Origin: an uncultured Chloroflexia bacterium
GTDB taxonomy: Bacteria; Chloroflexota; Anaerolineae; CG2-30-64-16
DNA: 64,000 bases
Reading direction: 5' to 3'
NCBI GenBank assembly: GCA_963774265.1
Contig: CAVZDU010000001.1
Span: 672,001 to 736,000 of the forward strand
A program made the position numbers and the translations under genes. Below, one piece after another: positions 6,268 through 59,368 of this stretch. A model generated the notes under the pieces. It had not been told where the DNA came from, did not search any database, and saw nothing but the letters and a program-made list of their open reading frames with translations. Numbering within the stretch: the stretch's first letter is position 1; every line of letters starts with the position of its first letter.

Positions 6268-6276
6268 GAGGCAACC

Positions 6277-7393: not shown

Positions 7394-7434
7394 TCTGGGC
7401 GAGAGCCCATGACGGTTGGATAAGGAGTGATTGG

Positions 7435-30864: not shown

Positions 30865-30939
30865 GAGTAGGGTGAAAGAGGCGAGCACCGGCCCACCATG
30901 GCCCCCGCATAGCTCGCCAACATGGAGGGAGATTTCACC

Positions 30940-31131
30940 ATGGAAGGCAAGAAGCTCTATCGCAGCAAGACTGACAAGATGATCGCCGGCGTATGCGGCG
31001 GATTGGCCCAGTATTTCGGCGTCGATACGACGCTGGTCCGACTGATCTTCGCCCTGTTAGTTTTCTTCGGCGTGGGTTCGGGCCTTGTGCTCTACATCGT
31101 TCTGGCCATCGTGATGCCGCTGGAACCGTAG
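30940..31131 (+). CDS. pspC: PspC domain protein
   Basis: [29 protein letters not shown]...[10 protein letters not shown]. Confidence 0.92.
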
Positions 31132-31141
31132 GGAGGTGTAC

Positions 31142-31672: not shown

Positions 31673-31684
31673 GGAGATCCGAAC

Positions 31685-38328: not shown

Positions 38329-38784
38329 ATGGCAAATCTAGTGCGTTTGGAGCCGGCTCGCGAAATGTTGAGCCTGCGCGAAGCCATGGATCGGCTTTTT
38401 GAGGAGAGCTTCCTGCGACCCGGTTCGTTCGGCGTTGGCGATTCTGCCGCCGCCGTGCTGCCGCTGGACATGTACGAGACCGAAAACGACGTCGTCGTCA
38501 AGGCGGCCATTCCGGGTGTCCAGCCGGAAGACATCGAAGTCACCGTGACGGGCGATCTGCTCAGCATCAAGGGCGAGTTCCGGTCCGAAACCGAGCAGAA
38601 AGACGAGAAGCGCAATTACCATCGGCAAGAGCGCCGCTACGGGAGCTTCTCCCGGCAGGTTACCTTGCCGTCGGGGGTCAACGCGGATGCGTGCGCCGCT
38701 GACTTTGAGAACGGGGTCCTGACCCTGAAGCTGCCCAAGGTCGAAGAGGCCAGGGTTAAGAAAGTTCAGATTCAGAGCAAGTAA
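38329..38784 (+). CDS. Hsp20/alpha-crystallin small heat-shock protein
   Basis: LREAMDRLFE, ERRYGSFSRQVTLP, ENGVLTLKLPK, KVQIQ. Confidence 0.93.
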   Translation: MANLVRLEPAREMLSLREAMDRLFEESFLRPGSFGVGDSAAAVLPLDMYETENDVVVKAAIPGVQPEDIEVTVTGDLLSIKGEFRSETEQKDEKRNYHRQERRYGSFSRQVTLPSGVNADACAADFENGVLTLKLPKVEEARVKKVQIQSK

Positions 38785-38799
38785 CGGAGGATTGAAGAG

Positions 38800-39261
38800 A
38801 TGGCTGAGATGACACGTTGGGATCCATTCCGCGAGGCAGTGACGTTGCGTGAGGCGATGGATCGCCTTTTTGAGGATAGCTATACACCCGCGCGTCGCAG
38901 CGATCAGGCGGCTGCGCAAGTCTGGCGGCTGCCGCTAGACGCCTATGTAACGGCTGAGGAAATCATCGTTCTGGCCAACATGCCAGGCGTCAAGCCGGAA
39001 GAGGTCGAGATCACGATCGAGGGCGACACCCTCACCATTCGCGGCGAGCGTCCGATGCCCATCGAAAATGTCAACTATGTGATGCAGGAGCGCACGTTCG
39101 GAAAGTTCCAGCGCACGCTCAACATCAATATCCCAGTAGACGCTAACCGGGCCGAAGCTCGTTACGACAACGGGCTGTTGACCCTGGTCATTCCGAAGGC
39201 CGAAGCTGCCAAGCCGAAAGTGATTCAGGTAGCGACAAAGCAAGCACAGCCGGCAGCGTAA
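38800..39261 (+). CDS. Second Hsp20 (tandem paralog)
   Basis: WDPFRE..LREAMDRLFE, ERTFGKFQR, DNGLLTLVIPK. Confidence 0.93.
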   Translation: MAEMTRWDPFREAVTLREAMDRLFEDSYTPARRSDQAAAQVWRLPLDAYVTAEEIIVLANMPGVKPEEVEITIEGDTLTIRGERPMPIENVNYVMQERTFGKFQRTLNINIPVDANRAEARYDNGLLTLVIPKAEAAKPKVIQVATKQAQPAA

Positions 39262-42435: not shown

Positions 42436-43395
42436 ATGAAGATGTATGGCGATCTGATGGTCTTCAGTGGCACCGCGAACGCGCACCTGGCGCACGCGGC
42501 TGCGGCGCGCCTTGGGGCCTCGCTGGGTGGGGCCGATATCGTGCAATTTCCCAACAGCAACACCTTCGTGCGGCTGCATCAAAGCGTGCGCGCCAAAGAC
42601 GTTTTTATCATTCAACCCACGGCTGCGCCTACCAATGAAAACCTGATGGAGTTGTTGATCTTCATCGACACACTACGCCGCGACTCTGCAGGCCGGATTA
42701 CAGCGGTCGTACCCTACTACGGATATGGCCGGACTGACAAGAAAGATCAACCACGCGTGCCCATCACGGCGCGTCTGGTGGCTGACTTGATCGCCGTAGC
42801 GGGCGCGGATCGCTTCGTCACTATAGATTTGCACGCCAAGCAGATCCAGGGCTTTTTCTCGATTCCGTGCGATGAGTTGCCGGCGTTGAGCCTGTTCGTA
42901 GAGCACTTTCGCAATCACCCGGTGCCAAATGCCGTCGTTGTCTCACCCGACATCGGCGCGTTGCGCCGGGCGCGCAACTTCGCGGAGCAGCTGGAATTAC
43001 CTCTCGCGGTCATCGAGAAGCGGCGTTCGCTCGACGGCAACCGAACCGAAACGCTCAATATCATCGGCGACATTGAAGATAAACACGTCATTCTGGTCGA
43101 TGATGAGATCGATACAGCGGGCACCCTGGTGCGTGCCGCCAGCTACATTCGGGATCAGGGCGCGCTTGACATCGTCGCCTGCGCCACCCATCCCGTGCTT
43201 TCTGAGCCGGCTGTCGACCGGATTCGCGAGAGCGTACTGAGCGAGGTCATATTCTGCGACACCATCGCCATTTCCCAAGACAAATGCCGGCGCAGTGGGG
43301 GTAAGATATCTATACTCCCCGTCGCCCCGCTCCTCGCCGATGTCATGCAGCGTATCCATGAGGGGCGCTCGGTCGGCGAGCTATTCGACGAATAA
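42436..43395 (+). CDS. prs: Ribose-phosphate pyrophosphokinase
   Basis: [37 protein letters not shown]. Confidence 0.93.
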
Positions 43396-43447
43396 CGTAC
43401 TCAAGGGCGGGCAAGACCGCTCTGGCCCTAGAAACGGAACAACAACT

Positions 43448-46417
43448 GTGTTTAAGAACCTGGTCAAGAAAGTCTTTGGTGATCCCAACGACAAAGAAGT
43501 TCGGCGCATGAGTCCGGTTGTCGAGCAAATCAACGCACTCGAGCCCGAATTCGAGCGTATGAGTGACGACGAACTGCGCGAGCAGACTGAGATGTTCCGC
43601 GCTACCATCGCGCAACGTGTCGGATCGCTGCCCGAGGAGTTGGCTGTTGCGCGCGAAGCGCTGCTCCAGGAAACCGACGCAAACGACCGCATCCAGAATC
43701 AGATCGAGGTTGACCGGGTACAGAAGGAGTTGCGTCAGGCCGAAGCCGATGCGATGGATGAGATCACCCCGCGCGCGTTCGCCGCGGTGCGGGAGGCGGC
43801 CAAACGCAGTATCGGGCTGCGCCACTACGATGTCCAGATGATCGGCGGGATGGTGCTGCATCAGGGCAAGATCGCCGAAATGAAGACCGGCGAAGGCAAG
43901 ACCCTCGTTGCCACACTGCCGCTGTATCTCAACGCTCTCACCGGTCGCGGTGCGCACCTGGTCACGCCCAACGATTACCTGTCCAAGTATGGCGTGCAGT
44001 GGATGGGCCCGATCTACCACATGCTCGGCGTCAGCGTCGGCGTCATCCAGTCAGCAGCGGCCAATCCCGAGCTCGGCTCGTTCGTCTTCGATCCTGACTT
44101 CCCTGACTGCGGACGACCGCTACCGCAACCTGCGCCCGGTCAGTCGCCGTGAGGCCTATCACGCGGACATCACCTACGGCACGAATAACGAGTTTGGTTT
44201 TGACTATCTGCGCGACAACATGGTCTCGGACCTGGCCGAATGCGTCCAGCGCGACCTGCACTATGCCATTGTCGACGAGGTCGACAACATCCTTATCGAT
44301 GAGGCGCGCACTCCGCTCATTATCTCCGGACAGGCGCAGGAATCGTCCGACCTGTACTCGAAGTTCGCCCAGTTGGTGCGCCGGCTCTCGCCCGAGCGTG
44401 ACTACAAGGTCGATGAGAAGGATCGGCTCGTCACCCTCACCGACGAGGGCATCGCGCGTGTCGAGAACCTGATGGGTCTTTCTGCGGGACAGAGTCTCTA
44501 CGACCCCGAGAACTATGAGATGACTCCCTACCTGGATAATGCACTGCGCGCTAACGTCCTCTATCACCTGGACCGCGATTACATCGTCAAGGATGGTGAG
44601 GTCATCATCGTGGACGAGTTCACCGGTCGCCTGATGTACGGCCGGCGCTTCTCCGAGGGTCTCCACCAGGCCATCGAGGCCAAGGAGGGCGTGCGGGTGC
44701 AGCGCGAATCGCTGACCCTGGCTACCATCACCTTCCAGAACTACTTCCGCATGTATGAGAAGCTCGCCGGCATGACCGGCACCGCGATGACCGAGGCGGA
44801 GGAGTTCGGCAAGATCTACAACCTGGACGTGATTGCGATCCCGACTCAACGAAGCCGTCGTCCGCGAAGACTACTCCGATCAGGTTTACAAGTCGCAGCG
44901 CGCCAAGTTTCGCGCGGTGGTGAATGAAATCGAGCAGCTACATCAGAAGGGCCAGCCCGTACTCGTCGGCACCGTGGCCATCGAGACGTCCGAGATGCTC
45001 TCCGACCTGCTCAAACGCAAGGGTGTGCCGCACAACGTGCTCAACGCAAAGCAGCATGAGCGCGAGGCTGGCATCATCGCACAGGCCGGACGCCCGGGCA
45101 CCGTGACCATCGCCACTAACATGGCCGGCCGTGGCGTCGATATCTTGCTGGGCGGCAACGCGGACGGCATCGCGCGCGAGCGGCTGCGCAAGAATGGCGT
45201 CAACCTTGCCGAGCTTTCCGAGGACGACCCGGTCTGGCTGGAGGCCCTGGCCGAGGGCAAAGCTGAGGTCGAGGTCGACCGGGCGCGCGTCATCGCGGCG
45301 GGCGGCCTTCACGTCTTGGGCACCGAACGCCACGAGGCGCGGCGCATCGATAACCAGCTCCGCGGCCGTTCGGGCCGCCAGGGTGATCCGGGATCCTCGC
45401 GCTTTTTCGTCAGCCTTGATGACGACCTGATGCGCCGGTTTGGTGGTCAGAGTGTCGCGAACATCATGGATCGGTTCGGCCTGGAAGAGGACGTGCCTAT
45501 CGAACATAACATCGTCAGCAAGGCCATCGAGAACGCCCAGGTGCGTGTCGAGGGCTATAACTTCGACATCCGTAAGCACGTGCTTGAATATGATGATGTT
45601 GTTAACAAGCAACGCGAGGTCATCTACAACCAGCGCCGCCAGATCCTGAGTGAGCCGACCATGCGACCCACCATCATGGGCATGATCGAGGACGAGCTGC
45701 GCAAGTTGGTGATGCTAGTCACGTCCGATCAGGAGAATGAGCGGAACCAGCCCTTGGAACGCAGCGAGTGGGACCTGGAGTCTCTCGCCGGTGAGGTGCA
45801 TAAGATTTTGCCCCTTCCGGAGGGCGAAGACCCTGAGGCCTGGCGCAGTTTCACCGCCAATGATTTGGCAGATCATTTGGTTGCCTTGGCTGAAGCAGCC
45901 TACGACGCGCGGCGAACAGTCGATGGGCGAGGCCGACATGCGCCGGCTCGAACGCCTCGTCATGCTGCGACTCGTAGATAACCGCTGGATTCGCCACTTG
46001 ACTGATTTGGATGAATTGCGCGAAGGCATCGGATTGCGCGCGTTCGCCCAACTGGACCCGCTGGTCGCTTACAAACGCGAGGCCAGTGAGATGTATGCGG
46101 ACTTGGTCGCGTCGATTTCGCACGACATCGCCTATACGATCTTCCACATGCAGCTCATGACGAGACCCGTCGCTCCGCCGGTTCGCCAAATTCAAACCAA
46201 CCGTAGCGATGGCGCCGCCCAACCCGTGCGTGCCACCAGCAAACAGCAGCTCGGCCGTAACGACCCGTGCTGGTGCGGCAGCGGCAAGAAGTACAAACAG
46301 TGCCACATGCGCGAAGATATGGGCCGCGCACCGGCGACTGCCGCGACGGGGACGGGGGGCGGCGCCGCGGCGCCTTCCGCCTCCCGTCGGCCGGCAAAAC
46401 CGGGTAAACGCCGCTAG
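43448..46417 (+). CDS. secA: Preprotein translocase ATPase SecA; indels near 44100, 44845 and 45915
   Basis: [71 protein letters not shown]. Confidence 0.96.
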
Positions 46418-46493: not shown

Positions 46494-47870
46494 ATGCCGC
46501 CAAAGCCACGCGAATGGATCTACCTTCCGCGTCACACCGACCTGACGCGCATCTTCGACGCTGCGTGCAGTATGGACTGCCTTTCCGTGGTCGGCGTGAG
46601 CAACCTCGGCAAGTCGGCCACCCTGCGCGCCCTGTGCGATCCGGCCGTGCAGACTCAGCACCTATCCGTCGATGCGCGCGATTACCTGTTTGTCTACATT
46701 GACTTCAATCAGATGCTAGTCATGAGCGACCAGGCGTTTTATGAGCTGATCCTTCGCGCATCCATCGAAGCCATTCGCAGCCAGAACATTAATGGCGATG
46801 TGCTGCGCAAGGTGGAGGCCGCTTACACCAGCCTGGTTGCGCCGGGGAGCCCGTTCGAGGTCCCTCTGGGGTTCACCCAAGGCATGGCAGCCATCGGCGA
46901 TCAACTCGAGCAGAAGGTCGTTTTTCTCTTTGACGAGGTCGATGGGCCGGTGGCCGGGATCGATGGCCGCGTTTTTCTCAATCTGCGCGGGCTGCGCGAT
47001 CGCCACCGCAATGGTCTGACCTATGTCACCGCAACCAACCGCCGGCTGGATCAAATTCGACGCGACTCGGATGTGTTGGAGTTCGCCGAGATGTTCGAGC
47101 ACAGCACGCTGTATATCTCGATGCTGCAGGAGGCCGAGATTCGCCAGCTCGCCATGCGCTATGCGGAGGAAGAAGGCCTCACTTTCAGTGAGGACGACTT
47201 CGCATATATCCGCCTGTGGAGCGGGGGACATCCAGCCCTGCTCGAAACCACGTGTCGCATCCTTGGCATGCTGACCGGCCGGCCCATGCGCGATTCTGCG
47301 CAGGACTGGATCATCCACCGCCGAGCGACTGAAGTGCTGACTCAGGATCTCAACGTGATCGGCGAGTGCCGCAAGATTTGGAACGATCTGGACGACGTTG
47401 AGCAGGAGGCGCTGTTGGCAGTCTCAGCCGGCAGTGAGAACGCCCTCGCCGGAGGGCTCGATAGCCTGATGGCGAAGCACCTGGTTACGCTCAATGGCGC
47501 AGAGTACAAGATTTTTTCGCGCTGCTTCGGGGAGTTCGTTGGTCGACAGAGTTTCTCGCGGCGGCCCGGCCCCCAGGCGTTTCGTGTCGATCCTGAAAGT
47601 GGCGATGTGTGGGTCAACGGCGAAAAGATCCCAACCCTCACGAACCTGGAGTATCGCCTCTTACTGCTCTTGTACGGCCGCATCGGCAAGATCGTTACCA
47701 AGTACGAGGTGGTGGAGGCGGTCTGGGGCGAGGATTATATCGACGACGTAGACGATGCGCGCATCGAAAAACTCGTCAGCCGTCTGCGTCAGAAGGTCGA
47801 GCCGGATCCTGCCAACCCTAAGCACCTGCAAACCGTGCGTGGACGTGGATACAAGCTCGCAGACAGCTAA
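46494..47870 (+). CDS. STAND-class NTPase fused to C-terminal OmpR/PhoB-type winged-helix DNA-binding domain
   Basis: Walker A GVSNLGKS, Walker B VFLFDE, GxP motif SGGHP; wHTH LTNLEYRLL...VWG...SRLRQKVEPDPANPKHLQTVRGRGY; no receiver domain. Confidence 0.85.
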   Translation: MPPKPREWIYLPRHTDLTRIFDAACSMDCLSVVGVSNLGKSATLRALCDPAVQTQHLSVDARDYLFVYIDFNQMLVMSDQAFYELILRASIEAIRSQNINGDVLRKVEAAYTSLVAPGSPFEVPLGFTQGMAAIGDQLEQKVVFLFDEVDGPVAGIDGRVFLNLRGLRDRHRNGLTYVTATNRRLDQIRRDSDVLEFAEMFEHSTLYISMLQEAEIRQLAMRYAEEEGLTFSEDDFAYIRLWSGGHPALLETTCRILGMLTGRPMRDSAQDWIIHRRATEVLTQDLNVIGECRKIWNDLDDVEQEALLAVSAGSENALAGGLDSLMAKHLVTLNGAEYKIFSRCFGEFVGRQSFSRRPGPQAFRVDPESGDVWVNGEKIPTLTNLEYRLLLLLYGRIGKIVTKYEVVEAVWGEDYIDDVDDARIEKLVSRLRQKVEPDPANPKHLQTVRGRGYKLADS

Positions 47871-47899
47871 TGCGAGGATGATAAAATAACGGCAGGTCC

Positions 47900-47988
47900 T
47901 GCAACCCATCGGTGTTTGTTTACGTGCAGACCTTGTCAGAATCCTGTCCGCCGCGGGTCATGCGAAGCCCGGCTGGTTGAATTATGAT
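47900..47988 (+). promoter_or_regulatory. pspA regulatory region: ECF-like promoter plus three 11-bp-spaced Pho-box-like half sites
   Basis: TGCAAC-17-CGTG (47900-47926); TGTCA/TGTCC/GGTCA at 47934/47945/47956; TATGAT at 47983. Confidence 0.55.
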
Positions 47989-48038
47989 ACTGACAGCAAG
48001 TATCTGAAATCCCATTTCTTGTTCAGGAGGCGTACGCC

Positions 48039-48725
48039 ATGGCAACCCTTCTCGAGAAGGTCCAAACGCTCATCTCGGCCAACCTGCACTACCTGGTCGA
48101 TCAGTCGCTTAAGCAGAACTCGATCGCGGTCATCAATCAATACATCCGCGAGGTAGAGAATAACCTCGATGACCTGTCGGAGGCGACCGCGACCGTCGGG
48201 GGCAATGTAAAGACCATCCGGCGTAAGTACGAGGAGTTTCAGGCCAAGGCCGCGGAACTGGATCGCAACATCGATCTGTTTCTGCGCGAGGGTCGTGATG
48301 ACCTGGCCCGAGCCGCCCAGAGCAAATACAACTCGACTCAGCGTCTGGTGGAAACCTACGCGCAGCAAATGGAACAGATGCAGCGCGAGTATCAGAACCT
48401 GATCGACGCGCGGCTCAAGTTGGAAGCCAAGCTGACCACCATCAAGCAGGAGCGCGAGGAGTTGGAGGCCCTGCTCGAGCTGGCCAAGTCCAAGGAAATC
48501 ACTGCGAAGACCATCAGGTCTCTGGACGATTTGGCCGGCGTGGGCGATGCGGACGTGGCGCGCATTGCCGACTCCATTCGCCAACGTCTGGATCGCGCCT
48601 CTGCAGAGAGCGAGATGCGCGCGGCAAGCCTGGACAAGCAGATGGACGACTTGCTGGATCGCGGCGAGCTCGACAACCAATTGACTGCCCGCAAGGCGCG
48701 GTTGGGGCTGCAGAAGGGCGGCTGA
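48039..48725 (+). CDS. pspA: PspA/IM30 family protein
   Basis: Amphipathic N-terminus MATLLEKVQTLISANL, NQYIREVE, GRDDLAR, long coiled coil, 228 aa. Confidence 0.85.
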   Translation: MATLLEKVQTLISANLHYLVDQSLKQNSIAVINQYIREVENNLDDLSEATATVGGNVKTIRRKYEEFQAKAAELDRNIDLFLREGRDDLARAAQSKYNSTQRLVETYAQQMEQMQREYQNLIDARLKLEAKLTTIKQEREELEALLELAKSKEITAKTIRSLDDLAGVGDADVARIADSIRQRLDRASAESEMRAASLDKQMDDLLDRGELDNQLTARKARLGLQKGG

Positions 48726-48735
48726 TTCGTACCCT

Positions 48736-48768
48736 GGAAGCCAGGTTTCTGTACGGAGACCTGGCTCC
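48736..48768 (+). other. Intergenic hairpin between the two pspA paralogs
   Basis: AGCCAGGTTTCTG-TA-CGGAGACCTGGCT, no U-tract. Confidence 0.5.
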
Positions 48769-48782
48769 CGTAGGAGCATCCT

Positions 48783-49466
48783 ATGGCAACTCTTCTCGAC
48801 AAAATTCAAACCCTGGTCTCTGCTGATATCAACCGGCTGGTTGACCGTGGACTGGGCGCGACCAACCAGGAGGCCATGTACCGGCATCACGTCCGCGAGT
48901 TGCAGACCATGCAGGAGCAGCTGAACAGCCAGATGGTCAGCCTGCGGGCTGAAATCACCCAGATGCACCGCCGGGCGGAAGAACAGCTAGCCGTGGTCGC
49001 GCAGCAAGACGCGGAAGTGGATCGGCTGCTCCAAGAGGGTCTCCAGGAAGATGCGTTGGCCGCGCAGGACAGGCTGAACCAGAATCGCCTGAACGCCGGG
49101 ATGCTGACCGAGCGGGTGGAACGGCTCGAGTCCGAGTATGCCCAGCTGGCTGAAGCTAAGGCCCAACTCGACACTCGTATCGACACCCTGGTGCGCAGCG
49201 AGCCGGAGGTCCGCAGCATGTTGGGCTTGTCCCGTGCCAAACAGCTCACAGCCGCGGCGCGCGAGTCGTTGGACGACCTGGAGGGTGTAGGTGACCCGGA
49301 CGCCGCCCGCGTGGTCGGCGACATCCGCACCCGGCTGGCCGAAGCTGAGGCGCAGCTCCAGGAGTTGGAGCAGCGGGGCCTTGCCCGGGGCGAAACCCCA
49401 GAAGTTCTGAAACGTAAAGAGTTAGAGGCGCAGTTGGAAGCGCGCAAGGCGCGGCTGGGCCTGTAG
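48783..49466 (+). CDS. Divergent second PspA/IM30 paralog
   Basis: Shares MATLL(E/D)K(V/I)QTL(I/V)SA start, SLDDLxGVGDxD and LxARKARLGL end with the upstream PspA. Confidence 0.78.
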   Translation: MATLLDKIQTLVSADINRLVDRGLGATNQEAMYRHHVRELQTMQEQLNSQMVSLRAEITQMHRRAEEQLAVVAQQDAEVDRLLQEGLQEDALAAQDRLNQNRLNAGMLTERVERLESEYAQLAEAKAQLDTRIDTLVRSEPEVRSMLGLSRAKQLTAAARESLDDLEGVGDPDAARVVGDIRTRLAEAEAQLQELEQRGLARGETPEVLKRKELEAQLEARKARLGL

Positions 49467-49483
49467 GCATAGAAGGAGACCCC

Positions 49484-50827
49484 ATGTCCCTGGCACCGAT
49501 CATCGGAGCGCTGGCCGTTGGCCTGATCGCGCTCGTCCTGGCAATTTACTTCTTTGCCGCGCGTAGCGGACAGCGCACGCAGGCCATCTTCTTTCTGATC
49601 GTCGGCCTGGTACTGTTGGTGGTCGGTGGCGCGCTGGGTTGGCAACGATTCAGCGCGACCAACCCGGGCGGTTCTGCACCGCTGGTCGCCACCCCCAAGG
49701 GGCCGATCCAGATCCGCATTCTCACTGCGCTCCCCATCGAACCGTGGGTGCGCGAGGCTGCCAAACAGTTCAACGAGGGCATCTTCACCCAGGACGGTCA
49801 ACCGGTCGAAGTCCAGGTGACGGCCATGGACGGGCTGACCGCGTTGGGCAAGTTCGACCGCGACGACTTTGGGTCGCTCGGCGATCGTACGCGTGATCAG
49901 CTCACCCCCGAAGAACTTACCCGTCTGGAAAGCACCTTCCCGACGGTGTGGATTCCCGACAGCCGCTATCTTGTCGAGCTGGCGAATGCGTCTTACAAGG
50001 AGCGCATCGGCCGCGATGTCTTCCTGACCGACGGCGAGTATCGCGCGCGGCCCATCGCCATCTCCCTGTTTGTATGGGGTATCTACCAAAGCCGCTCTGC
50101 CGTACTGGAGCGAAAGTTCGGCGAGATCACATGGGCAACGATTCATGATGCCGCCATCGCCAAGGGCGGCTGGCCCGAACTGGGTGGTGAAAAGAGTTGG
50201 CAATTCTTCAAGCTTGTTGTGCCCAACCCCCGGCGCAATGTCGGCGGTCTGGCCGCAATGATCGCCGCGGCCGGCGAGTATTACGACCGAACGAACATCT
50301 CGGTCGACGATGTGATGGCTCCCGAATTTCAGAAGTGGCTCGGTGAGTTGATGAGTTCACTGACGGATGTCAGCGGCGCGAGCGCGAACACGGCGGAGGA
50401 CTTCGCCCTGTTTGGCTATTCGGCCGGCGACGGCGGACAACTTCTGGAAAGCGATCTGCTCAATAACATGGAAGGTATACGCACGCGCTGGTCCGACCCG
50501 CTGGTGATCCGTTATCCCAAATACGTCACGTGGTTTGACTTCCCGTATACCGTCTGGGTCGGCCCCGAAACCACGGCGGCCGAGAAGAACGCCGCGCTTC
50601 AATTCCAGCAGTTCCTGCTGACGCCTGACATGCAACGTCTGGCCGTGCAGGCCGGCCTGCGGCCCGTGATCAACGAGGTGAACGTCACCGAGGGTCAAAA
50701 CCTCTTCACGCAGTGGCAGGCGCAGGGCGTCGAGGCGGTTGTGCCGCGCACCACGCGTATGGCCTCGCCTAGCCGCGATGTTTTGCTTGCGCTCCTGCGC
50801 TGGTTTGATCTGAACGTGGGGAAGTAA
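49484..50827 (+). CDS. 2TM-anchored solute-binding-fold protein
   Basis: Two N-terminal TMs; PTVWIPDS, FDFPY, AALQFQQFLL..AGLRP typical of VWA-associated SBP domains. Confidence 0.72.
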   Translation: MSLAPIIGALAVGLIALVLAIYFFAARSGQRTQAIFFLIVGLVLLVVGGALGWQRFSATNPGGSAPLVATPKGPIQIRILTALPIEPWVREAAKQFNEGIFTQDGQPVEVQVTAMDGLTALGKFDRDDFGSLGDRTRDQLTPEELTRLESTFPTVWIPDSRYLVELANASYKERIGRDVFLTDGEYRARPIAISLFVWGIYQSRSAVLERKFGEITWATIHDAAIAKGGWPELGGEKSWQFFKLVVPNPRRNVGGLAAMIAAAGEYYDRTNISVDDVMAPEFQKWLGELMSSLTDVSGASANTAEDFALFGYSAGDGGQLLESDLLNNMEGIRTRWSDPLVIRYPKYVTWFDFPYTVWVGPETTAAEKNAALQFQQFLLTPDMQRLAVQAGLRPVINEVNVTEGQNLFTQWQAQGVEAVVPRTTRMASPSRDVLLALLRWFDLNVGK

Positions 50828-50828
50828 C

Positions 50829-52559
50829 ATGAAGAAGACGCGGAACGATCAGCGTACCGTTGTCATCGCCCTCGTCGCGGCCTTGGCGGTCTTTCTCCTC
50901 CTATGTGTGGTGCTGGCGCTGATCTTCATCCCCGCTCGCCGGACGACAACTGTGGAGCCGGGTGTTGCGACGCAGTCCGACCCGCGCTCGGCCACCCTGG
51001 TCATTGCCCATTCGCCGGAGAAAGCTACGCTCGTTCAGTCCCTGGTGGAGCGCTTCAACCGAGAGAAGCAGCGCACAGCCGACGGGCAAACCATGCGCAT
51101 CGAGCTGCTGGAGTTGACATCCGAGGAGATGGTTAACCAGGCGCTGGCCGGCCTGAACACCTACCAGGCCATCACACCGGATTCTTCCTTGTGGCTCGAT
51201 CAGCTCAATAGGCGGTGGGCGCAAAGCCAATCCGACCAGTCGGAGCCGGGCGCAATCACATCCAGCCTGACCGGCGAGCCGGTGCGTTACGCCATCAGCC
51301 CGATCGTCATTGCAGCCTGGGAGGATCTCGCCCGATCGCTGGGTTGGCCTGACCAGCCGGTGAGTTGGAGCACTTTGCAGAGCCGTGCGCAGGGGGACGC
51401 CAACTTCCGCTGGAGCCACCCGAGCACCGCGTACGCCAGCGGCCTGCTAGCTACACTGGCCGAGTTTTACGCGGGTGCTGGCGTCCAGCGTGGGCTTACT
51501 GCCGAAATGGCTCAGGACCCGAAGACGGTCGAGTATGTCTCAGCGATTGAGAAATCGGTGAAATACTACGGCGAAGCCGAGCTGGCCGTCATCCAGCGCG
51601 TGGCGCAAGATCGCACCGCCCTTGACGCGTTTGTGGTCTCGGAACAACTTGTCATCGCCTTCAATACCGGCAAGTTCGGAAATGCTTCGCCGTCAAACAA
51701 ACTCGTCGCCCTCTATCCCGCGGAAGGCTCCTTCTGGGCTGACCATCCGCTGGCATTGCTTGAGACGCCCGCATTGACCGACAACCAGCGGCGCACCTTC
51801 CAGGCGTTTCGCGAATTCCTGGGCGGGGCCGAAACGCAAAAATCCATCATGGAAGCAGGTTATCGGCCAACGGATCTGAGCCTGTCGCTCACCGGCGAGG
51901 GCTCTCCCTTCTCCGCGACAAACGGCGTCGATCCTAAACAGCCGCAGACCACGCTCCAACTGCCCACGGCCGACGTTGTGCAGGTGGTCCAGAACGTGTG
52001 GGCTTTGACGAAGCGAAAGACGAACGTGTTTTTAGTTGTTGACACGTCCGGTTCCATGCAGGGCGACAAGCTGCGCAGCGCTAAAGCCGCACTCCGCACC
52101 TTCCTTGCGCAAATCCCGAGCGACCAGGAAAAGGTGGGACTTGTTGAATTCAATACGGCTGTGGCGAACATCATCGAATTGGACATGCTGGCCAATAACC
52201 GGGCAGTTTTGAACAGTGCCGTGGATGGGTTGACCGCAAACGGCAATACGGCTCTCCTCGACGGAGTGCGCGTGGCGTATGCACGCCTCCAACAGAATGC
52301 GGAACCCGAGCGCATCAACGCGATCGTGGCGATGACTGACGGTCGCGAGAATGCATCGATGGTCAGCCTGCGCCAACTCGTCGGCGAAATTCAAGCGAAC
52401 AACCCCAACTTGCCTGTCGTCATCTTCTGCATCGCATATGGCAGTGACGCCGACTATGCCGTACTCCAGGCTATTGCAGACGCAAGCAGCGGTCAGGTGC
52501 GCGAAGGCAACGAGGAGACGATTCGTGACTTGTACAAGATCCTGTCGAGCTATTTCTGA
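50829..52559 (+). CDS. Membrane-anchored solute-binding-fold + von Willebrand A (MIDAS) protein
   Basis: Single TM; TPDSSLW, SPIVIA, ADHPL, GYRP; VWA VVDTSGSM, GNTALLD, MTDGRE. Confidence 0.85.
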   Translation: MKKTRNDQRTVVIALVAALAVFLLLCVVLALIFIPARRTTTVEPGVATQSDPRSATLVIAHSPEKATLVQSLVERFNREKQRTADGQTMRIELLELTSEEMVNQALAGLNTYQAITPDSSLWLDQLNRRWAQSQSDQSEPGAITSSLTGEPVRYAISPIVIAAWEDLARSLGWPDQPVSWSTLQSRAQGDANFRWSHPSTAYASGLLATLAEFYAGAGVQRGLTAEMAQDPKTVEYVSAIEKSVKYYGEAELAVIQRVAQDRTALDAFVVSEQLVIAFNTGKFGNASPSNKLVALYPAEGSFWADHPLALLETPALTDNQRRTFQAFREFLGGAETQKSIMEAGYRPTDLSLSLTGEGSPFSATNGVDPKQPQTTLQLPTADVVQVVQNVWALTKRKTNVFLVVDTSGSMQGDKLRSAKAALRTFLAQIPSDQEKVGLVEFNTAVANIIELDMLANNRAVLNSAVDGLTANGNTALLDGVRVAYARLQQNAEPERINAIVAMTDGRENASMVSLRQLVGEIQANNPNLPVVIFCIAYGSDADYAVLQAIADASSGQVREGNEETIRDLYKILSSYF

Positions 52560-53440
52560 TGTCTGAATCGATCCGCGATCAACTGGAACAGGACGTCGGC
52601 AAGGCGCTGCTGCGCAATGCAATTTTCCGGGTGGAGAGTGCATTGATGGTAGGTGGCACCCTTCTGGCGACGGTATTCCTGCCAAACGTGATTCCGTGGA
52701 TCCCGTGGTTCGCCTGGCCTATCGTGGGCATCATCGGCGAGGTTGCCATCATCGTCTCCACGCTCACCGACAAGGCCGAGCAGCAGAAGGCGATCGAGGC
52801 GCTGTTCCGGGAGAAATACACCTTTTCCGGCATTCACGACCGCGCGCTCCTGTCCAAACTGAACGAGGCCGAACAGTACCGCCAGCGGATTCAGGCGCTG
52901 ATCGAGCAACATCGCGAGGGCCTGCTTCGCGATCGCATGAAAAGCACCACCGACCAGGTCTACGACTGGATTGCGAACATGGTGGCTTTGGCTCGTCGTC
53001 TGGACACGTATCGGTCCGACCGGATCCTCCGGCGGGACCTGGAGAATGTGCCGAAGGACATGGAGCGGCTCAAGGCGCGCCTTCAGATGGAGCGCGACCC
53101 ACACGTGCGCGATCAGATGAGCGAGACCCTGGAGTCGAGTCGCGAACAAGCTGCGTCGCTGAACGAACTCCGGGCGCGCATGGATCGCGCTGACCTGCAG
53201 CTTGATCACTCATTGGCTGCTTTGGGCACGGTTTACTCACAACTTCTGCTCATCGGGACGAAAGATGTCGATTCGGATCGCGCCGAGCGTCTACGTGATG
53301 ACATTCGGGGCGAAGTGCTCGCGTTGAAGGATATCGTCGATTCGCTCAACGAAGTTTACACGTCAACCTCGACAGAGCTATCTTCCGAAGAGGCCGAGGC
53401 TGCGCGCCAGCTACAGAGGACCGAACGCGCGGGTAGATAG
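52559..53440 (+). CDS. 2TM protein with long coiled-coil domain (XpaC-like architecture)
   Basis: TGATG coupling to the VWA gene; two hydrophobic helices followed by about 220 aa of heptad-rich sequence. Confidence 0.7.
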   Translation: MSESIRDQLEQDVGKALLRNAIFRVESALMVGGTLLATVFLPNVIPWIPWFAWPIVGIIGEVAIIVSTLTDKAEQQKAIEALFREKYTFSGIHDRALLSKLNEAEQYRQRIQALIEQHREGLLRDRMKSTTDQVYDWIANMVALARRLDTYRSDRILRRDLENVPKDMERLKARLQMERDPHVRDQMSETLESSREQAASLNELRARMDRADLQLDHSLAALGTVYSQLLLIGTKDVDSDRAERLRDDIRGEVLALKDIVDSLNEVYTSTSTELSSEEAEAARQLQRTERAGR

Positions 53441-53536: not shown

Positions 53537-54682
53537 ATGAAGCATATGCGTCTTGGGATAGTTCTTCTGGTCTTGGCCATTCTCGTTTCTGCGTGTAATG
53601 GCGGGGGGGCAGTGCCGACGAAAGGCGAGGTGACTGTCTACGTGGCCGGGCCGCTCTCAGGCTTCCAGGCCAACACGGGACAGACCGTCGCTGGGGGCGT
53701 GCGCCTCATGGCTGAGCAACTGAATCGTGCCGGTGGTCTGCTGGGTTACAAGGTAATGGTTGTCGCGCTCGACGACGAGGCCGACTCGGGTGTGGCCGTG
53801 AGCGTGGCGGAGCAGATCAAAGAGGCTGTCAACCGCGGTGAGAAGGTTGTGGGTGTGATCGGTCATCCGAACTCGGGCCCAACAGCGGCCGCGATGGGTG
53901 TCTACAAGGACCTGGACCTGGTGGTCATCACACCGACCGCCTCCGAGGTTGCGCTCACGCAGCAGGGGTATCGTAATTTCTTCCGCGTTAATGCCGCGAA
54001 CGACCTTCAGGCGCAGACTGGCGCGGAGTACCTGGTCAACAAGCTAGGCGCAAAGAAGGTCGCGGTCCTGTACAACGATGATGCGTATGGCATTGACCTG
54101 GGCAGGCTCGTCGCAGAAGACTTGCGCACGCTGGGCGCCGTGGTGCCCGTGTCACTCCAGGTGAAGGTCGAGCAGAACCGATTCGGGGATGAAGTCGCCA
54201 AGGTCAAACAGGCGGGCGTCGATGCGATTTACTACGCTGGCTACGAAGTGGAGTGCCCTTACTTGCGGGCGGATTTGCGCGATGCCGGGTTGGACAAATT
54301 GACCTTCATGGCTTCGGACGGTTGCTTCCTGTCTACCACCATTGATAGCGCAGACGGCGCGGCAGAGGGTATATACGTCACCGGCTTTGCCCCCAGTCCA
54401 AAGACCTCGGTCGATCAACAGTGGGTGTCCGCCTATCAGGCTGTCGAATTTCGCAATCCAGATACCTATTCGGTCAACGGGTATAGCGCGATGCAGGTGT
54501 TGGCTGAGGGTGTGAAAAAGGCCGGCAGCCTGACCGGATCGAAGGTGGAGGCTGCGATCCGCAGCCTCGATATTAAGACCCCGCTCGGCCAGGTCCAGTT
54601 TCAGGATAACGGCGACCTGCGCAAGGCCCAGATCTACATCTTCCAGGTGAAAGACGGTCAGTTCGCGCAGGTGGCCCCTTGA
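53537..54682 (+). CDS. Branched-chain amino-acid ABC substrate-binding lipoprotein (LivK-like)
   Basis: Lipobox LVSAC, PLSG, GGLLG, VIGHPNSG, FFRV, DDAYG. Confidence 0.88.
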   Translation: MKHMRLGIVLLVLAILVSACNGGGAVPTKGEVTVYVAGPLSGFQANTGQTVAGGVRLMAEQLNRAGGLLGYKVMVVALDDEADSGVAVSVAEQIKEAVNRGEKVVGVIGHPNSGPTAAAMGVYKDLDLVVITPTASEVALTQQGYRNFFRVNAANDLQAQTGAEYLVNKLGAKKVAVLYNDDAYGIDLGRLVAEDLRTLGAVVPVSLQVKVEQNRFGDEVAKVKQAGVDAIYYAGYEVECPYLRADLRDAGLDKLTFMASDGCFLSTTIDSADGAAEGIYVTGFAPSPKTSVDQQWVSAYQAVEFRNPDTYSVNGYSAMQVLAEGVKKAGSLTGSKVEAAIRSLDIKTPLGQVQFQDNGDLRKAQIYIFQVKDGQFAQVAP

Positions 54683-55980
54683 GCGAGCACAATTACACGA
54701 TCCTGGCGGTCTTTGCCCATCCCGATGATGAAATCGGCGCGGGATCAACCCTCGCCCACTACAGCGATGCAGGCGTTCGTATCGTCCTGGCCTGCGCCAC
54801 GCGCGGCGAAGCCGCGACGATTTACTGTGCAGATTGCGCATCGCCGGAGACGCTTGCTGAAGTGCGCACGCAGGAGCTAGCCTGCGCTTGCGAACACCTG
54901 GGCATCGATGATCTGCGTTGGCTGGACTGGCCCGATGGAAAGGTCAAAGACGTGCCGCGTCGGGATGCGATCGGCCAGGTCGTCGAGTTGATCCGCGATG
55001 TCCATCCTACCGTCGTTATCACGCACCCTGAAAACGGCCTCTACCCTCATCCGGACCATCTGGCGATCTGGGAGATCGTGCGCGCTGCCTTCAATGCCGC
55101 CGGAGATGAGGCGCAATATCCCGAGGCCGGCCCGGCCTGGCCGGTCGCTCGTTTGTTTGCCCGCGCAATGCCTCAAGGTTTCTTTGAGCGTTCACCGGGA
55201 CTCACCGATTTCCGCGTTGAGCTGAACGGTGAACTCCTGCCGTTTATGGGTACGCCTGACGCGGAAATCGACGTGGTGATGCATGTGGAGCCGTGGGTGT
55301 CGCGCCGCATGGCGGCCTGGGGTTGCCACCGCTCACAGCACAACCCGAAGGGGTTTTCCTCCGTCATGCCCGATGGGCTGCGCCAAGAGATGGCTGCCAA
55401 CGAGCACTTTCTGCTGGCCGCGGGCGAGCCGCTGCCGTCTGGCGTGCAAGATGATTTGTTTGCCGGTATTGAAGAAGGGGACACGTTTATGGTTCAGCGA
55501 CCATCATCCCGCGGGGACGGTTTCCAGGGGGGCAATGAGGGTGCGCCCGCAGAACCGCCAGCGGCAGAAGAGCCCGTCGTTTCCACCGAGTACGTACGGC
55601 TCTTGCTTGCCGAACTAACGCGCCACGTGACCCTGGCCGAAGTCCTTCGCATCTATCAGCACGATCCCCGCGAAACGAAACAGATCAACCTGTATCACGA
55701 GCTTGGTGCCGGCGAGCAAGAGATCCTCTACCGGTTGGCGCGCATACTGCGCCGGCTGGATGCCGGCGCAGGCAAAACCGAATCCGACGTGGCGGTTATC
55801 CGGGAGGCCCGCCGCCGCGAGCGCCCCGAGCCGCGCCGCGAGTTTCTCCTCAACCGTATGGAAGTTGCCTACGGCCGTCTGCAAGACAACGCTCGCAGCG
55901 CCACGATTGTGGACGAGCGAGAGACCTGGGAAGAACTGGCTGTGCTTGCGAGATCGGCCGTCGAGCTGTTGAAAGAGTAG
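54679..55980 (+). CDS. PIG-L/LmbE (MshB/BshB-like) deacetylase with C-terminal helical extension
   Basis: FAHPDDE, ATRGEA, HPDH, CHRSQ. Confidence 0.85.
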   Translation: MSEHNYTILAVFAHPDDEIGAGSTLAHYSDAGVRIVLACATRGEAATIYCADCASPETLAEVRTQELACACEHLGIDDLRWLDWPDGKVKDVPRRDAIGQVVELIRDVHPTVVITHPENGLYPHPDHLAIWEIVRAAFNAAGDEAQYPEAGPAWPVARLFARAMPQGFFERSPGLTDFRVELNGELLPFMGTPDAEIDVVMHVEPWVSRRMAAWGCHRSQHNPKGFSSVMPDGLRQEMAANEHFLLAAGEPLPSGVQDDLFAGIEEGDTFMVQRPSSRGDGFQGGNEGAPAEPPAAEEPVVSTEYVRLLLAELTRHVTLAEVLRIYQHDPRETKQINLYHELGAGEQEILYRLARILRRLDAGAGKTESDVAVIREARRRERPEPRREFLLNRMEVAYGRLQDNARSATIVDERETWEELAVLARSAVELLKE

Positions 55981-57531: not shown

Positions 57532-59368
57532 CTAGATGATCTCCAGCTCCTTCAGCTTCGCCTCCGGCACCACGCCGTCCACCCAGCCGCGCAGCCGGTA
57601 GTACTCCTCCAGCATCTTGTCCAGCTCGCAGACCTGGCCCTTGGAGCCCTGCATCGTTGGAGGGCTCCTCCAGGAAGCGCTTCGGCAGGGTGTCGCTGCC
57701 TTCGCGGAAGCCGTTCAGGTTGTTGTAGTGGCGCTCCAGGTTGTAGACCCGCTCGCCCACCGTCAGCAGGTCGCCGGCGGTGCATGGCGCGCCGGTGATC
57801 GCCGCGAACTGCGCCGCAAAGCCATCCAGCGACTCGGCAGAAGGTGGAGAACTTGCACACGTCCAGGCAGTCGGTGATGGCGTGGACGTTCTGGAAGATC
57901 ATGATCAGGTTGCCCTTGCCTTCCCAGGCCAGCGGGTCAACCACCGTCGGCGGGGCCGAGCACGTTGCCGACAACCTCGGCGGCCGGCGTGTAGCCGCGC
58001 AGGTGGCACGCGCCGCGGTTCTGGTGGCGTAGCCGATGCCCATGCCCTTGATGCCGCGCGGGTCGTAGGCCGGGATGCCCTGATCCTTGCACGCCATGGC
58101 AAGCTCGGGATGGCCCAGCTTCTCCGCCGCCTTGCCGGTGCCTTCGGCCAGGATGTCGCCGATGCCCTCGCGGAACGCGATCTTGCGGGCCATCTCCACC
58201 ATGCCGTGGGTGTCGCCCCAGGCCAGGCCGTCGCCGTTGGCGTAGCCGCTTCTGGGTGTACTCCATGTACATCGCCAGCACGGTGCCGATCTCGATGGCG
58301 TCGAAGCCGTAGTCGTTGGCGCGATCGATCATGTAGGCGACCGCGGCGATGTCGTCGTTGCCGCAGATGGCGCCCACCGACCAGGCCGGCTCGTACTCGA
58401 CGCTCTCCATGTGGACCTTGAACGGCCCTTCCTTGACCTCGACCTCTTTCTTGCAGGCCACCGGGCAGGCATGGCAGGTGGGATCGTTGACCAGGATCGT
58501 GTCCTTGACGTACTCGCCGCTGAGCAGCTCGGCGCGCTCGCCGAAAGCAGGTCTCCTGGCCGTTGCGCACCGGCAGCGCGCCGATGTTGCTGGTGATGTT
58601 CATCAGCACGTTGGTGCCGTAGACCGACAGCCCGCCCTTGCGCGGCGAGGTCAGGACCCGCTCGTCCGATGAGCTGCGCCAGGGCGACCTTCTGCGCCGC
58701 CTTGAACGCCTCTTTGTCGGCCGGCCGCGGCCGGTTGGCGTGCTCGCCCTTGATCACGATCGCCTTCAGGTTCTTGCTGCCGCCCACGCAGCCGGTGCCG
58801 CCGCGGCCCGAGGAGCGATCGTTCTCGTTCATCCAGCAGGCGAACTTCACCAGGTTCTCGCCGGCCGGGCCGATGGCGATGACGCTGAGGTCCTTGGCGC
58901 CGCCGTGGCGCTCCTGCAGGATCTTGATCGTCTCATGGACGTGCTTGCCCCACAGATCGCTGGCATCGTGCAGCGTCACCTTGCCGTCCTCGACGTAGGC
59001 GTAGACCGGCTTCTCGGCCTTGCCCTTGAAGACCAGCCCGTCGAACCCGGCCCACTTGAGCCGCGCCGCCGACCAGCCGCCGTGGTGCGAGTCGGTCACG
59101 GTGCCGGTGAGCGGCGACTTGGTGCACGACGGCCATGCGGCCGCTCAGGTTCACGTCGGTGCCGGTCAGCGGCCCGTTCATGAAGCAGAGGATGTTGTCC
59201 GGCGAGAGCGGATCCACCGGCGGGCCGTTGTCGAAGACGTACTTCACTCCCAGGCCGCGCGCGCCGATGTACTTGCGCGCATCTTCGTCCGCGATCGGCT
59301 TGTACTCGATCTGGCCCTGTGGTCAGATCGATCCAAGCCACCCGATTGGTATAACCACCAAGTTCCAT
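57532..59368 (-). CDS. aor: Tungsten-containing aldehyde:ferredoxin oxidoreductase; multiple indels
   Basis: KYIGARGLG, KSPLTG, LKWAGFDG, GRGGTG..GSKNLKA, CxxCPxxC, YDPRG..NRGACH, DTLPKRF; GAGGAGG RBS. Confidence 0.9.

Follow-up and report, generated by a model that had tools for sequence, protein, structure and literature searches.

A candidate Psp-type envelope-stress operon of Chloroflexota that joins PspA to a two-transmembrane helical protein, tethered binding proteins and an NTPase regulator

The stretch of DNA analysed here, which we refer to as the window, comprises 64,000 nucleotides from the genome of an uncultured Chloroflexia bacterium, available as a 5.5-Mb assembly that is 84% complete. 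Within the window lies a cluster of genes built around two that encode proteins of the PspA/IM30 family. An initial annotation of this DNA had described six co-oriented genes, running from a regulator to a membrane protein that we call CC, and had proposed that they form a new system of envelope stress. We have followed up this proposal by computation on the window and on related genomes. All six open reading frames (ORFs) are present on the plus strand, and recomputation of the spacings between the last four genes gave the 17, 1 and -1 bp reported earlier. The features of the cluster are as follows.

46494..47870, plus strand: the regulator, a P-loop NTPase with a C-terminal winged helix-turn-helix (wHTH) domain of the OmpR/PhoB type (Trans_reg_C match, alignment, structure model).
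47933..47963, plus strand: predicted operator, three direct repeats TGTCAG, TGTCCG and GGTCAT with an 11-bp period (footprint; position weight matrix, PWM).
47983..47988, plus strand: -10-like hexamer TATGAT, starting 26 nt past the start of the third repeat.
48039..48725, plus strand: pspA1, encoding a PspA/IM30 (bacterial ESCRT-III) protein, the conserved effector (PF04012).
48783..49466, plus strand: pspA2, encoding a diverged PspA paralogue (sub-threshold PF04012 match, identity to PspA1).
49484..50827, plus strand: a membrane-anchored protein with a solute-binding protein (SBP) fold (N-terminal transmembrane, or TM, segment; weak SBP matches).
50829..52559, plus strand: SBP-VWA, a membrane-anchored protein with an SBP_bac_11 domain and a von Willebrand factor A (VWA) domain whose metal ion-dependent adhesion site (MIDAS) is intact (Pfam, alignment).
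52559..53440, plus strand: CC, a hairpin of two TM helices (2TM) with a cytoplasmic helical bundle of ~220 aa, the predicted membrane partner of PspA (model, synteny).
53537..54682, plus strand: a Peripla_BP_6 (type I binding protein) lipoprotein, the seventh conserved member (Pfam, 187.5 bits; lipobox).
54679..55980, plus strand: a gene for a PIG-L/LmbE-type deacetylase (PF02585, 115 bits), with a 4-bp overlap with the preceding stop.

The six genes had been taken as the unit. They are real, but the conserved unit is bigger, in that the Peripla_BP_6 lipoprotein belongs to it as well, and the six-gene form is one of several elaborations of a constant core that consists of PspA and CC. These points emerge from comparison with related genomes. 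Full-length orthologues of SBP-VWA (E<1e-150) were found in most of the 24 genomes of the same family and, outside the family but within the class, in 6 of 16 genomes; 14 regions were excised for a comparison of gene order. Nine loci of the same family show the order regulator, PspA1, PspA2, SBP, SBP-VWA, CC, Peripla_BP_6 as far as the contigs reach, mostly continuing with PIG-L, and a tenth (L021) ends before the regulator; across the family the cluster holds a stable place, flanked by secA and housekeeping genes. In other families, three loci have PspA1, SBP, SBP-VWA, CC and Peripla_BP_6 without PspA2, two of them with the regulator and one (L019) with none. In a sample of 401 Chloroflexota genomes a single-sequence query with CC found it in 12 at E≤1e-5, scattered over several families and classes. 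Four of the loci from this phylum-wide sample contain PspA and CC alone (L033, L034, L036, L042). Three loci from other classes (L039, L040, L041) have a diverged PspA followed by SBP, SBP-VWA, CC and Peripla_BP_6, with CC only 23-27% identical to that of the window; the diverged PspA was detected by Pfam in L039 (E 7.7e-18) and L041 (E 1.9e-5) and only by a weak tblastn match in L040 (27% identity, E 2e-11). Peripla_BP_6 is present in all of the other-class loci L038-L041. The cluster is thus kept in the family and in other families of the class, and its core form extends to other classes of the phylum, which answers the question of synteny that the initial annotation had raised.

For a census of CC loci, a pattern scan of one genome per species returned 80 loci, which were scored with hidden Markov models built from the sequences in hand. 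The scan derives from a narrower CC alignment and is biased to CC proteins that keep the motif [RK]A[DEK]LQL[DE][HNQ][ST]L; the proportions listed here count only loci with enough flank, and the relatives among them are not independent.

pspA, co-oriented and at most 7 kb upstream of CC: 68 of 69 loci.
SBP-VWA with CC: 30 of 71.
SBP with CC: 30 of 67.
Peripla_BP_6 downstream of CC, in step with SBP-VWA: 33 of 73.
Regulator with CC: 21 of 57.
NfeD and Band_7 with CC: 12 of 73-75.
PIG-L downstream: 22 of 68.

Among the 51 fully flanked loci there are 17 bare PspA-CC dyads, 14 examples of the whole eight-gene form and 11 in which PspA and CC are followed by NfeD and Band_7. SBP, SBP-VWA and Peripla_BP_6 join the dyad in about 40% of loci, deeply diverged ones included, so that three outside, membrane-tethered binding proteins are built into the dyad in a large part of the phylum. 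In a FastTree phylogeny of 84 CC proteins, loci of the SBP-VWA type fall on both sides of the midpoint root, with at least 5 changes of type, and the tie to the binding proteins is therefore either old or repeatedly made and did not arise from one recent accident. Within the class of the window, PspA occurs in 6 of the sampled genomes and CC in 5 of those 6. Inspection of these patterns suggests that the cluster is a real, conserved operon and that the PspA-CC dyad is its core; both conclusions are well supported by the comparison of genomes. The near-obligate position of CC beside pspA fits the partner role that had been proposed for it, one comparable to that of PspB/C, LiaI or PspM. The PIG-L gene is possibly co-transcribed with the cluster; its membership is doubtful, as it is full-length and high-scoring only in closer relatives, a short ORF of 33-40 bits standing in its place in L069, L072, L074 and L077. 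All 80 CC loci come from metagenome-assembled genomes of Chloroflexota except for one 2.3-kb contig binned as Roseobacter sp. (L111; JAYTNY010000739.1, 2311 bases). It carries a PspA-CC dyad typical of Chloroflexota, and its assignment to Roseobacter is probably a binning error.

CC has no Pfam match even at E 10. Its AlphaFold model (pLDDT 85) is all helical, with a short N-terminal helix, a TM hairpin at about residues 25-70 in which the loop between the helices has about 10 residues, and then a long antiparallel helical bundle that extends to the C-terminus. The family is large, with 1306 representatives at E≤1e-3 among 1.84 billion, and its members are named "hypothetical protein" in the source databases, apart from one stray JGI name. 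A Foldseek search of the PDB with the model gave no match at E≤1e-3, and the best result of a wide search with VIA-align (Z 11.4) was to generic helical bundles, under the level that is meaningful for helical proteins. In some relatives the C-terminal bundle forms one protein with a Ser/Thr kinase (P0053, P0104, P0119), a BTAD domain (P0024) or pentapeptide repeats with 2TM (P0099). Fusions to kinases and to BTAD are as expected of a signalling or adaptor module, and in one locus (L081) a Ser/Thr kinase gene lies between pspA and CC. When PspA1 and the cytoplasmic part of CC were submitted together to complex prediction, the score was 0.13 and the mark 0.32, values that count neither for nor against contact. 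The genome also contains a paralogue of the cytoplasmic domain, a protein of 408 aa with a different N-terminal part (L032 9190-10416, equal to G000:C1:1051189-1052415), which is 34% identical over residues 103-271 and is encoded away from pspA, its neighbours being genes for a LigT-like phosphoesterase and an uncharacterised protein.

Two known families were considered as relatives of CC. In the ESM Atlas the named cluster that lies closest is Rv2743c/PspM (score 0.92, 40% of members). The identification of CC as PspM was rejected; by hmmscan the PspM model PF25587 gives no match to CC at E≤10, and a search of the window's own genome with this model yielded 4 weak matches, none of them at CC. 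The second family is XpaC (Halogen_Hydrol, PF10112), to which the initial annotation had alluded in the term "XpaC-like". This model does not match the window's CC, but it does match some orthologues that are 67-73% identical, at E 5e-7 to 5e-5, with the TM hairpin and first helices in register. Of 120 listed CC homologues, 9 have a precomputed PF10112 match; on rescanning, these gave 23.9-30.4 bits, and P0210 alone exceeded the cut-off of 29.8. The proteins from five CC loci gave E values of 1.2e-5, 0.004 and 0.19 and, in two cases, no match. In total 14 proteins were scanned and one was over the cut-off, 9 of the 14 having been preselected because they carried the match. Since the matches are borderline and the window's CC is unmatched, we treat the resemblance to XpaC as a lead and not as membership. 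No PF10112 member over the cut-off was found in the 401 Chloroflexota genomes.

The partner of CC, PspA1, scores 72 bits on PF04012 against a cut-off of 33.9 and has no TM segment, while PspA2 scores 31 bits, just below the cut-off, and is 36% identical to PspA1 across its full length. These are the sole PF04012 matches near or over the cut-off in the genome, at its completeness of 84%. Products of CC-adjacent pspA genes are 50-96% identical to PspA1 in other loci of the same class and 21-33% identical in the two other-class loci that could be placed in the alignment; in 26 sequences the N-terminus, MA(S/T)LLEKV.TLI.ANLH, is nearly invariant. The pspA2 gene occurs in 10 loci of the same family and not in three from other families (L017-L019), so that PspA2, like the regulator, is a lineage-specific addition to the cluster. 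At one of these three loci (L017) a tandem repeat with units of about 120 nt (3905-4450) takes the place of pspA2 between pspA and the SBP gene, and a small ORF with 2TM follows it at 4617-5135. In the window, directly past the stop codon of pspA1, there is a hairpin, CCTGG-AAG-CCAGG, with a T-rich tract (48733-48745, plus strand). It could reduce read-through to pspA2 and beyond; it is a weak match, and such sites are no more numerous in the region than shuffling would lead one to expect.

The C-terminal domain of the regulator scores 68.7 bits on Trans_reg_C (PF00486) against a cut-off of 26.2, and in structure it matches VicR/YycF/KdpE. The N-terminal part matches nSTAND1/2 and AAA_16 only at E 0.005-0.03, below the cut-offs. 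Among 10 homologues the Walker A residues G34..G39-K40-S41 (GxxNxGKS), the Walker B residues D147-E148 (DExD) and G244-G245-H246 (GGH(P)) are invariant, as are an RxxLNxRxLxD stretch and a sensor-1-like AT, and the wHTH is almost unchanged. The structural model (pLDDT 87.7) consists of a nucleotide-binding domain (NBD), a helical domain (HD), a winged helix (WH) and the OmpR-type wHTH, which follows directly upon the WH domain; no repeat sensor domain (TPR, WD40, LRR) is present. By Foldseek the regulator most resembles ORC2, Cdc6 and two archaeal ATPases, 2qen/2fna; the NLRs Roq1 and CED-4 rank lower. The initial annotation had called this protein a STAND NTPase (signal transduction ATPase with numerous domains). 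The Walker A and B motifs, the GxP motif and the NBD-HD-WH fold bear out the term, but the family models are sub-threshold, and because a repeat sensor domain is missing and the best folds are ORC/Cdc6-like, "STAND-like" is a fair description and full membership is not claimed. The gene is single-copy in the genome. An upstream start at 46209, where the ORF opens, was dropped; it would overlap the C-terminus of SecA, and nine orthologues support 46494.

The regulator can persist without the binding proteins: L081 retains it with PspA and CC though the SBP genes are missing. Other arrangements occur upstream of the dyad. In lineages without the NTPase regulator a cytoplasmic hybrid kinase, REC-HisKA-HATPase(-REC), is encoded directly upstream of pspA, and between pspA and CC there is a protein of about 445 aa that has a weak Zn-ribbon match in L084 and is otherwise nameless. 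The coordinates of the REC-kinase and extra genes are 5359-7689 and 8612-9961 in L084, 5292-7607 and 8671-10008 in L113, 5443-6792 in L081 and 6097-7206 in L018. In L081 and L018 the regulator and a REC-kinase are both present, and L018 has a TPR protein before CC.

The spacer between the regulator gene and pspA1 provides evidence on the target of the regulator. When the 250 nt upstream of pspA1 from 22 regulator-bearing loci were aligned, the sequence was diverged except for TGTCAG, GTC(C/G/A)G, GTCA(A/T)G, a TAnnnT hexamer and an AGGAGG ribosome-binding site before the ATG. The pattern GTC-N8-GTC-N8-GTC, with its period of 11 bp, precedes pspA1 in 22 of 22 regulator-bearing loci; these loci are essentially one clade, and the count is therefore a phylogenetic footprint and not a set of 22 independent trials. 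In loci where no regulator was detected, the triple repeat was found in 2 of 41 pspA upstream regions, namely L054, in which the flank is too short to show a regulator gene, and L071, in which 6 kb of flank lacks it. The TAnnnT hexamer lies at an offset of 26 from the third GTC in 19 of the 22 loci and of 25 in the other 3, which puts the third repeat in the -35 position. When the entire 5.5-Mb genome was scanned with the PWM, the site at 47933-47963 scored 37.9 bits and the next best 14.5. The matrix was built from 22 sites including that of the window, and the informative point is therefore that there is no second strong site. PhoB-type activators bind direct repeats that are one helical turn apart and substitute for a -35 element. 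The comparison supports well the conclusion that the NTPase-wHTH protein is a dedicated regulator of the operon with a defined, predicted operator, and a conserved, genome-unique triple repeat at the -35 position of pspA1 fits the earlier suggestion that this protein may stand in the place of PspF. The TGTCA-like repeats recall the Pho boxes bound by PhoB in the same position, and the fusion of a signal-integrating NTPase to a DNA-binding domain recalls MalT and AfsR. PhoB, however, is activated through a receiver domain and not by an NTPase, and MalT has an HTH of the LuxR type, while AfsR has an N-terminal SARP wHTH and TPR repeats. The window's regulator, by contrast, carries its wHTH at the C-terminus and is without a repeat sensor domain.

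The remaining products are predicted to lie outside the membrane. SBP (49484-50827) matches SBP_bac_8/11 only at E about 0.01, and a paralogue of its family reaches 58 bits on SBP_bac_11. Searched alone against PDB sequences it gave nothing useful; a profile of the family gave weak matches to the sulfate-binding protein SubI (E 0.0044), a sugar-binding protein (E 0.015) and iron-binding proteins (E 0.23-0.36). SBP-VWA scores 44.5 bits on SBP_bac_11 and 63.7 bits on VWA. Its MIDAS residues, D405, S407, S409, T474 and D504, are the same in all 14 homologues compared, which span 29-64% identity, and the best PDB sequence matches are inter-alpha-trypsin inhibitor heavy chains and the calcium-channel alpha2delta protein. 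An N-terminal TM anchor was found in 10 of 10 SBP and 13 of 14 SBP-VWA homologues. The Peripla_BP_6 protein has a signal peptide and the lipobox LVSAC, and 8 of 9 N-termini of this family that were examined have a hydrophobic signal segment and a nearby cysteine. By the positive-inside rule the domains of all three proteins should face outwards.

The SBP_bac_11+VWA architecture is widespread, occurring in clusters of Chloroflexota, Pseudomonadota, Actinomycetota and Bacillota. SBP and SBP-VWA paralogues also occur, as pairs or triplets, without PspA or CC, beside a V4R-domain protein and a HAMP-GAF histidine kinase in L022 (7892-15297) and beside a Bax1-I family protein in L023 (6482-15210). 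The initial annotation had pointed to the lack of an ABC (ATP-binding cassette) ATPase, and a crude regular-expression search of the whole 64 kb indeed gave no ORF that joins a Walker A motif to an ABC signature. Among 33 VWA-bearing loci, 7 have such ORFs, 8 in total, mostly at least 6-7 kb from CC although the nearest (L078, L071) are less than 2 kb from the cluster end; the other 26 loci have none. The permease and ATPase of an ABC importer are thus not found in the operon with these SBPs; transporters encoded elsewhere are possible. One locus, L035 (315-7097), contains CC together with SBP-VWA, a further CC-like gene and an NMT1-like SBP whose OmpA match is sub-threshold; the neighbours of this group, an Orn/Arg-decarboxylase-like gene and an amine oxidase gene, recall a published PspA-polyamine theme.

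Taken together, these results make it probable, if by a modest measure, that the cluster as a whole is a Psp-type (PspA/ESCRT-III) envelope-stress operon, with a set of partners that is not found in the main texts of two surveys of Psp systems (discussed below). A mechanism can be proposed. The NTPase-wHTH activator would bind the three repeats as a nucleotide-dependent oligomer and recruit RNA polymerase as PhoB does at a Pho box. CC would sit in the membrane with its helical bundle in the cytoplasm and, we infer, would dock PspA there or nucleate its polymers. The TM hairpin of CC would contact the TM anchors of SBP and SBP-VWA, and we infer that by such contacts the three binding proteins may provide an input from outside. 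An outside ligand, a metal-dependent contact through the MIDAS, or a defect of wall or membrane could then be signalled through to the PspA side. Two of the three inferences of the initial annotation have support from the comparison of genomes; that the SBP and VWA proteins sense a ligand or damage, as it had also supposed, is pure conjecture. As a guess, the NTPase regulator might in turn be modulated by the balance of free and membrane-engaged PspA, in the way that PspF is by PspA.

Several observations weigh against this interpretation. The 17 dyads without an SBP gene among 51 loci, and the 11 with NfeD and Band_7, imply that the binding proteins are dispensable for PspA-CC function. Conversely, L035, L038 and L043 have SBP-VWA and CC (and, in L038 and L043, SBP as well) with no pspA seen nearby. 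PF04012 is present in 211 of the 401 sampled genomes (207 of 397 when four flagged as unpublished, G078, G266, G212 and G382, are left out), compared with 12 of 401 for CC, so that most PspA proteins of the phylum work without CC. The outside loop of CC has only about 10 residues, and any coupling to the binding proteins would run through TM segments. With respect to the regulator, the repeat sensor domain that STAND proteins typically have is missing, more distant homologues of the NTPase part (about 29% identity, from another class) are not adjacent to pspA, the matrix that singles out its operator contains the window's own site, and its loci come from essentially one clade.

Three other explanations were weighed. 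The first is that the genes share only a transcript. PspA and CC would be a maintenance dyad and the tethered SBPs orphans that serve transporters encoded elsewhere, for example for oxyanion or amino-acid uptake, with adjacency reflecting co-regulation under the same stress and no shared complex. SBP_bac_11 and Peripla_BP_6 are indeed classical transporter families, a third of the fully flanked loci (17 of 51) have the dyad without binding proteins, the SBP and SBP-VWA pairs of L022 and L023 do without PspA, and PspA or Snf7 operons with parts of ABC transporters appear in the main text of one survey (PMC11237479). This explanation would not lead one to expect the lack of an ABC ATPase signature in the window and in 26 of 33 VWA-bearing loci, nor that the SBP genes sit between pspA and CC, in an order that survives to 23-27% identity of CC. 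Furthermore, the fusion to VWA/MIDAS is, to our knowledge, not a trait of transport SBPs, and we consider separate functions unlikely.

The second explanation makes the outside proteins the effectors. Together they would form a tether or scaffold, based on VWA/MIDAS, from the membrane to the wall or sheath of these filamentous bacteria, PspA and CC would reinforce the membrane beneath, and the regulator would answer something else. VWA/MIDAS domains are typically modules of adhesion or assembly, the best matches in the PDB are the inter-alpha-trypsin inhibitor and alpha2delta proteins, and all three outside proteins are tethered to the membrane. In addition, a PIG-L-type sugar deacetylase is encoded next in closer relatives, and the SBP-like protein of L035 matches OmpA, a family that binds the wall, below the cut-off of 27.2 (23.0 bits, E 1.1e-4). 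Yet SBP folds with conserved pockets usually bind small ligands, and since no input domain is evident in the NTPase regulator itself, input from a membrane complex stays attractive; we regard a purely structural role as quite improbable. The third explanation, an island of anti-phage or abortive-infection defence with a STAND-like NTPase as the sensor of infection and with membrane-active effectors under its control, is very improbable even though STAND/NLR-like NTPases are common in defence systems, PspA was first discovered as a phage-induced protein and Roq1 and CED-4 are among the regulator's structural neighbours, given that the PADLOC defence models do not match the regulator, SBP or SBP-VWA and match the PspA proteins and CC only weakly (JetC, LmuB, JetA; coiled-coil-type noise), that the family-wide synteny between secA and housekeeping genes is stable, unlike that of mobile defence islands, and that the NTPase is fused to a DNA-binding domain and has a promoter-proximal predicted operator.

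If the cluster is a Psp-type envelope-stress operon, it is of interest to compare it with the systems already described. PspA/Vipp1 proteins are the bacterial ESCRT-III, and their delivery to the membrane and the signalling of damage are understood in few models, namely PspBC-PspF, LiaI-LiaFSR and PspM-ClgR. The cluster resembles the E. coli PspF-PspABC(DE) system in combining a PspA/IM30 effector, a small membrane partner and a dedicated activator of the NTPase type that adjoins the operon. It differs in that the regulator is an NBD-HD-WH NTPase with an OmpR-type wHTH, acting at repeats predicted to overlap the -35 region, and not a sigma-54 enhancer-binding AAA+ protein; moreover, PspB and PspC are absent from the cluster and three outside binding proteins are present, which the E. 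coli system does without. In the LiaIH-LiaGFSR system of B. subtilis a PspA homologue (LiaH) likewise adjoins a small membrane anchor (LiaI) and a wHTH regulator drives the operon, whereas our cluster is without LiaI/LiaF-TM, Toastrack and a histidine kinase/response regulator pair, and CC is unrelated to LiaI by Pfam. A Pfam scan of the six proteins and 22 flanking ORFs revealed no PspF-like, PspB/PspC or LiaRS-like gene, in agreement with the initial annotation. A separate trio at 30922-32485 (plus strand), 15 kb upstream of the pspA operon, encodes first a PspC-domain protein of 69 aa (96 bits; its gene is 17 kb away), then a LiaF-TM-like membrane protein and a protein that combines LiaI-LiaF-TM with Toastrack/LiaF-C. 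It is a Psp-related module of the published kind, separate from this operon; the PspC-domain genes of the genome are that at 30922-31131 in the window and one on contig C3.

The mycobacterial ClgR-PspA-PspM-PspN operon also has a 2TM membrane protein beside pspA, and it is to this protein, PspM, that the ESM Atlas links CC. Apart from the failure of PF25587 to match CC, the mycobacterial regulator has a Cro-like HTH, and PspM is described in the main text of Ravi et al. (PMC11237479) as having no detectable homologues outside Actinobacteria. The association of PspA with Band-7/SPFH and NfeD proteins, as in ydjFGHL-like contexts, is a published theme (Ravi et al. 2024, main text, PMC11237479), and it is matched by the 12 CC loci in which the dyad is followed by NfeD and Band_7. 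The window's cluster, however, has no SPFH or NfeD gene, and no mention of CC was found in that survey. The PspA contexts presented there are ABC/PBPB-OmpA, Band-7, two-component and PspM; the terms vWA, OmpR and SBP are absent from the main text, and Chloroflexi appears once, in connection with a PspAA fusion. The main text of Popp et al. (PMC9239133) contains none of the terms Chloroflex, VWA, von Willebrand, solute, coiled and OmpR. A full-text literature search found no paper that joins PspA with VWA and solute-binding, or PspA with Chloroflexi and von Willebrand. The claim that this architecture had not been described is thus consistent with the main texts of two large Psp surveys, in which the layout is unmentioned, although their supplementary tables may list it.

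The cluster would offer a fourth solution to the recruitment of PspA and to its signalling. Its parts are a large, nameless family of helical 2TM proteins whose genes nearly always adjoin pspA, an NTPase-wHTH regulator whose 31-bp operator can be predicted precisely and whose regulon appears to be a single promoter, and surface-tethered SBP-VWA and type I binding proteins that would give a PspA system an input from an outside ligand. The cluster also gives a hint that the same principle is at work in the XpaC-TelA pair, which is poorly understood and affects the susceptibility of enterococci to daptomycin. XpaC of Bacillota is, like CC, a 2TM protein with a helical cytoplasmic part that is encoded beside a soluble helical stress protein, TelA; here the soluble partner is PspA, PF10112 fails to match the window's CC, and TelA was not found in the genome, which is 84% complete. 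In E. faecium, deletion of xpaC lowers the minimum inhibitory concentration of daptomycin and redistributes phospholipid domains only with telA intact (conference abstract, PMC6811118), and XpaC likewise affects daptomycin binding only when TelA is intact (PMC6811118). One could go further and suppose that CC and XpaC are one ancient family of 2TM adaptors that couple a membrane-tethered SBP-VWA sensor on the outside to a helical, membrane-protecting polymer in the cytoplasm, as a device that senses damage across the membrane, with PspA in Chloroflexota and TelA in Bacillota and others as interchangeable effectors, and with the NTPase-wHTH switch reading PspA occupancy in the window's lineage. 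We consider this larger scheme rather unlikely.

The genes around the cluster include, upstream, those for an epimerase, PRPP (phosphoribosyl pyrophosphate) synthetase and SecA and, downstream beyond Peripla_BP_6 and PIG-L, radical-SAM and aldehyde:ferredoxin oxidoreductase (AFOR) genes. NCBIfam models added nothing specific for the six proteins. The secA gene of the window (43295-46417, plus strand) is broken over four frames (43295-44152, 43908-44927, 44833-45981 and 45737-46417) that jointly hold the SecA domains in order, and six relatives have single ORFs of 987-1024 aa. Indel errors of a long-read assembly are a more likely cause than the death of an essential gene, and such errors may explain the completeness estimate of 84% as well. 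The AFOR gene (57552-59099, minus strand) is also in two pieces, AFOR_N at 58329-59099 and AFOR_C at 57552-58202. Finally, a tandem pair of HSP20/alpha-crystallin genes is found at 38329-39261 (plus strand), 7 kb upstream of the cluster.

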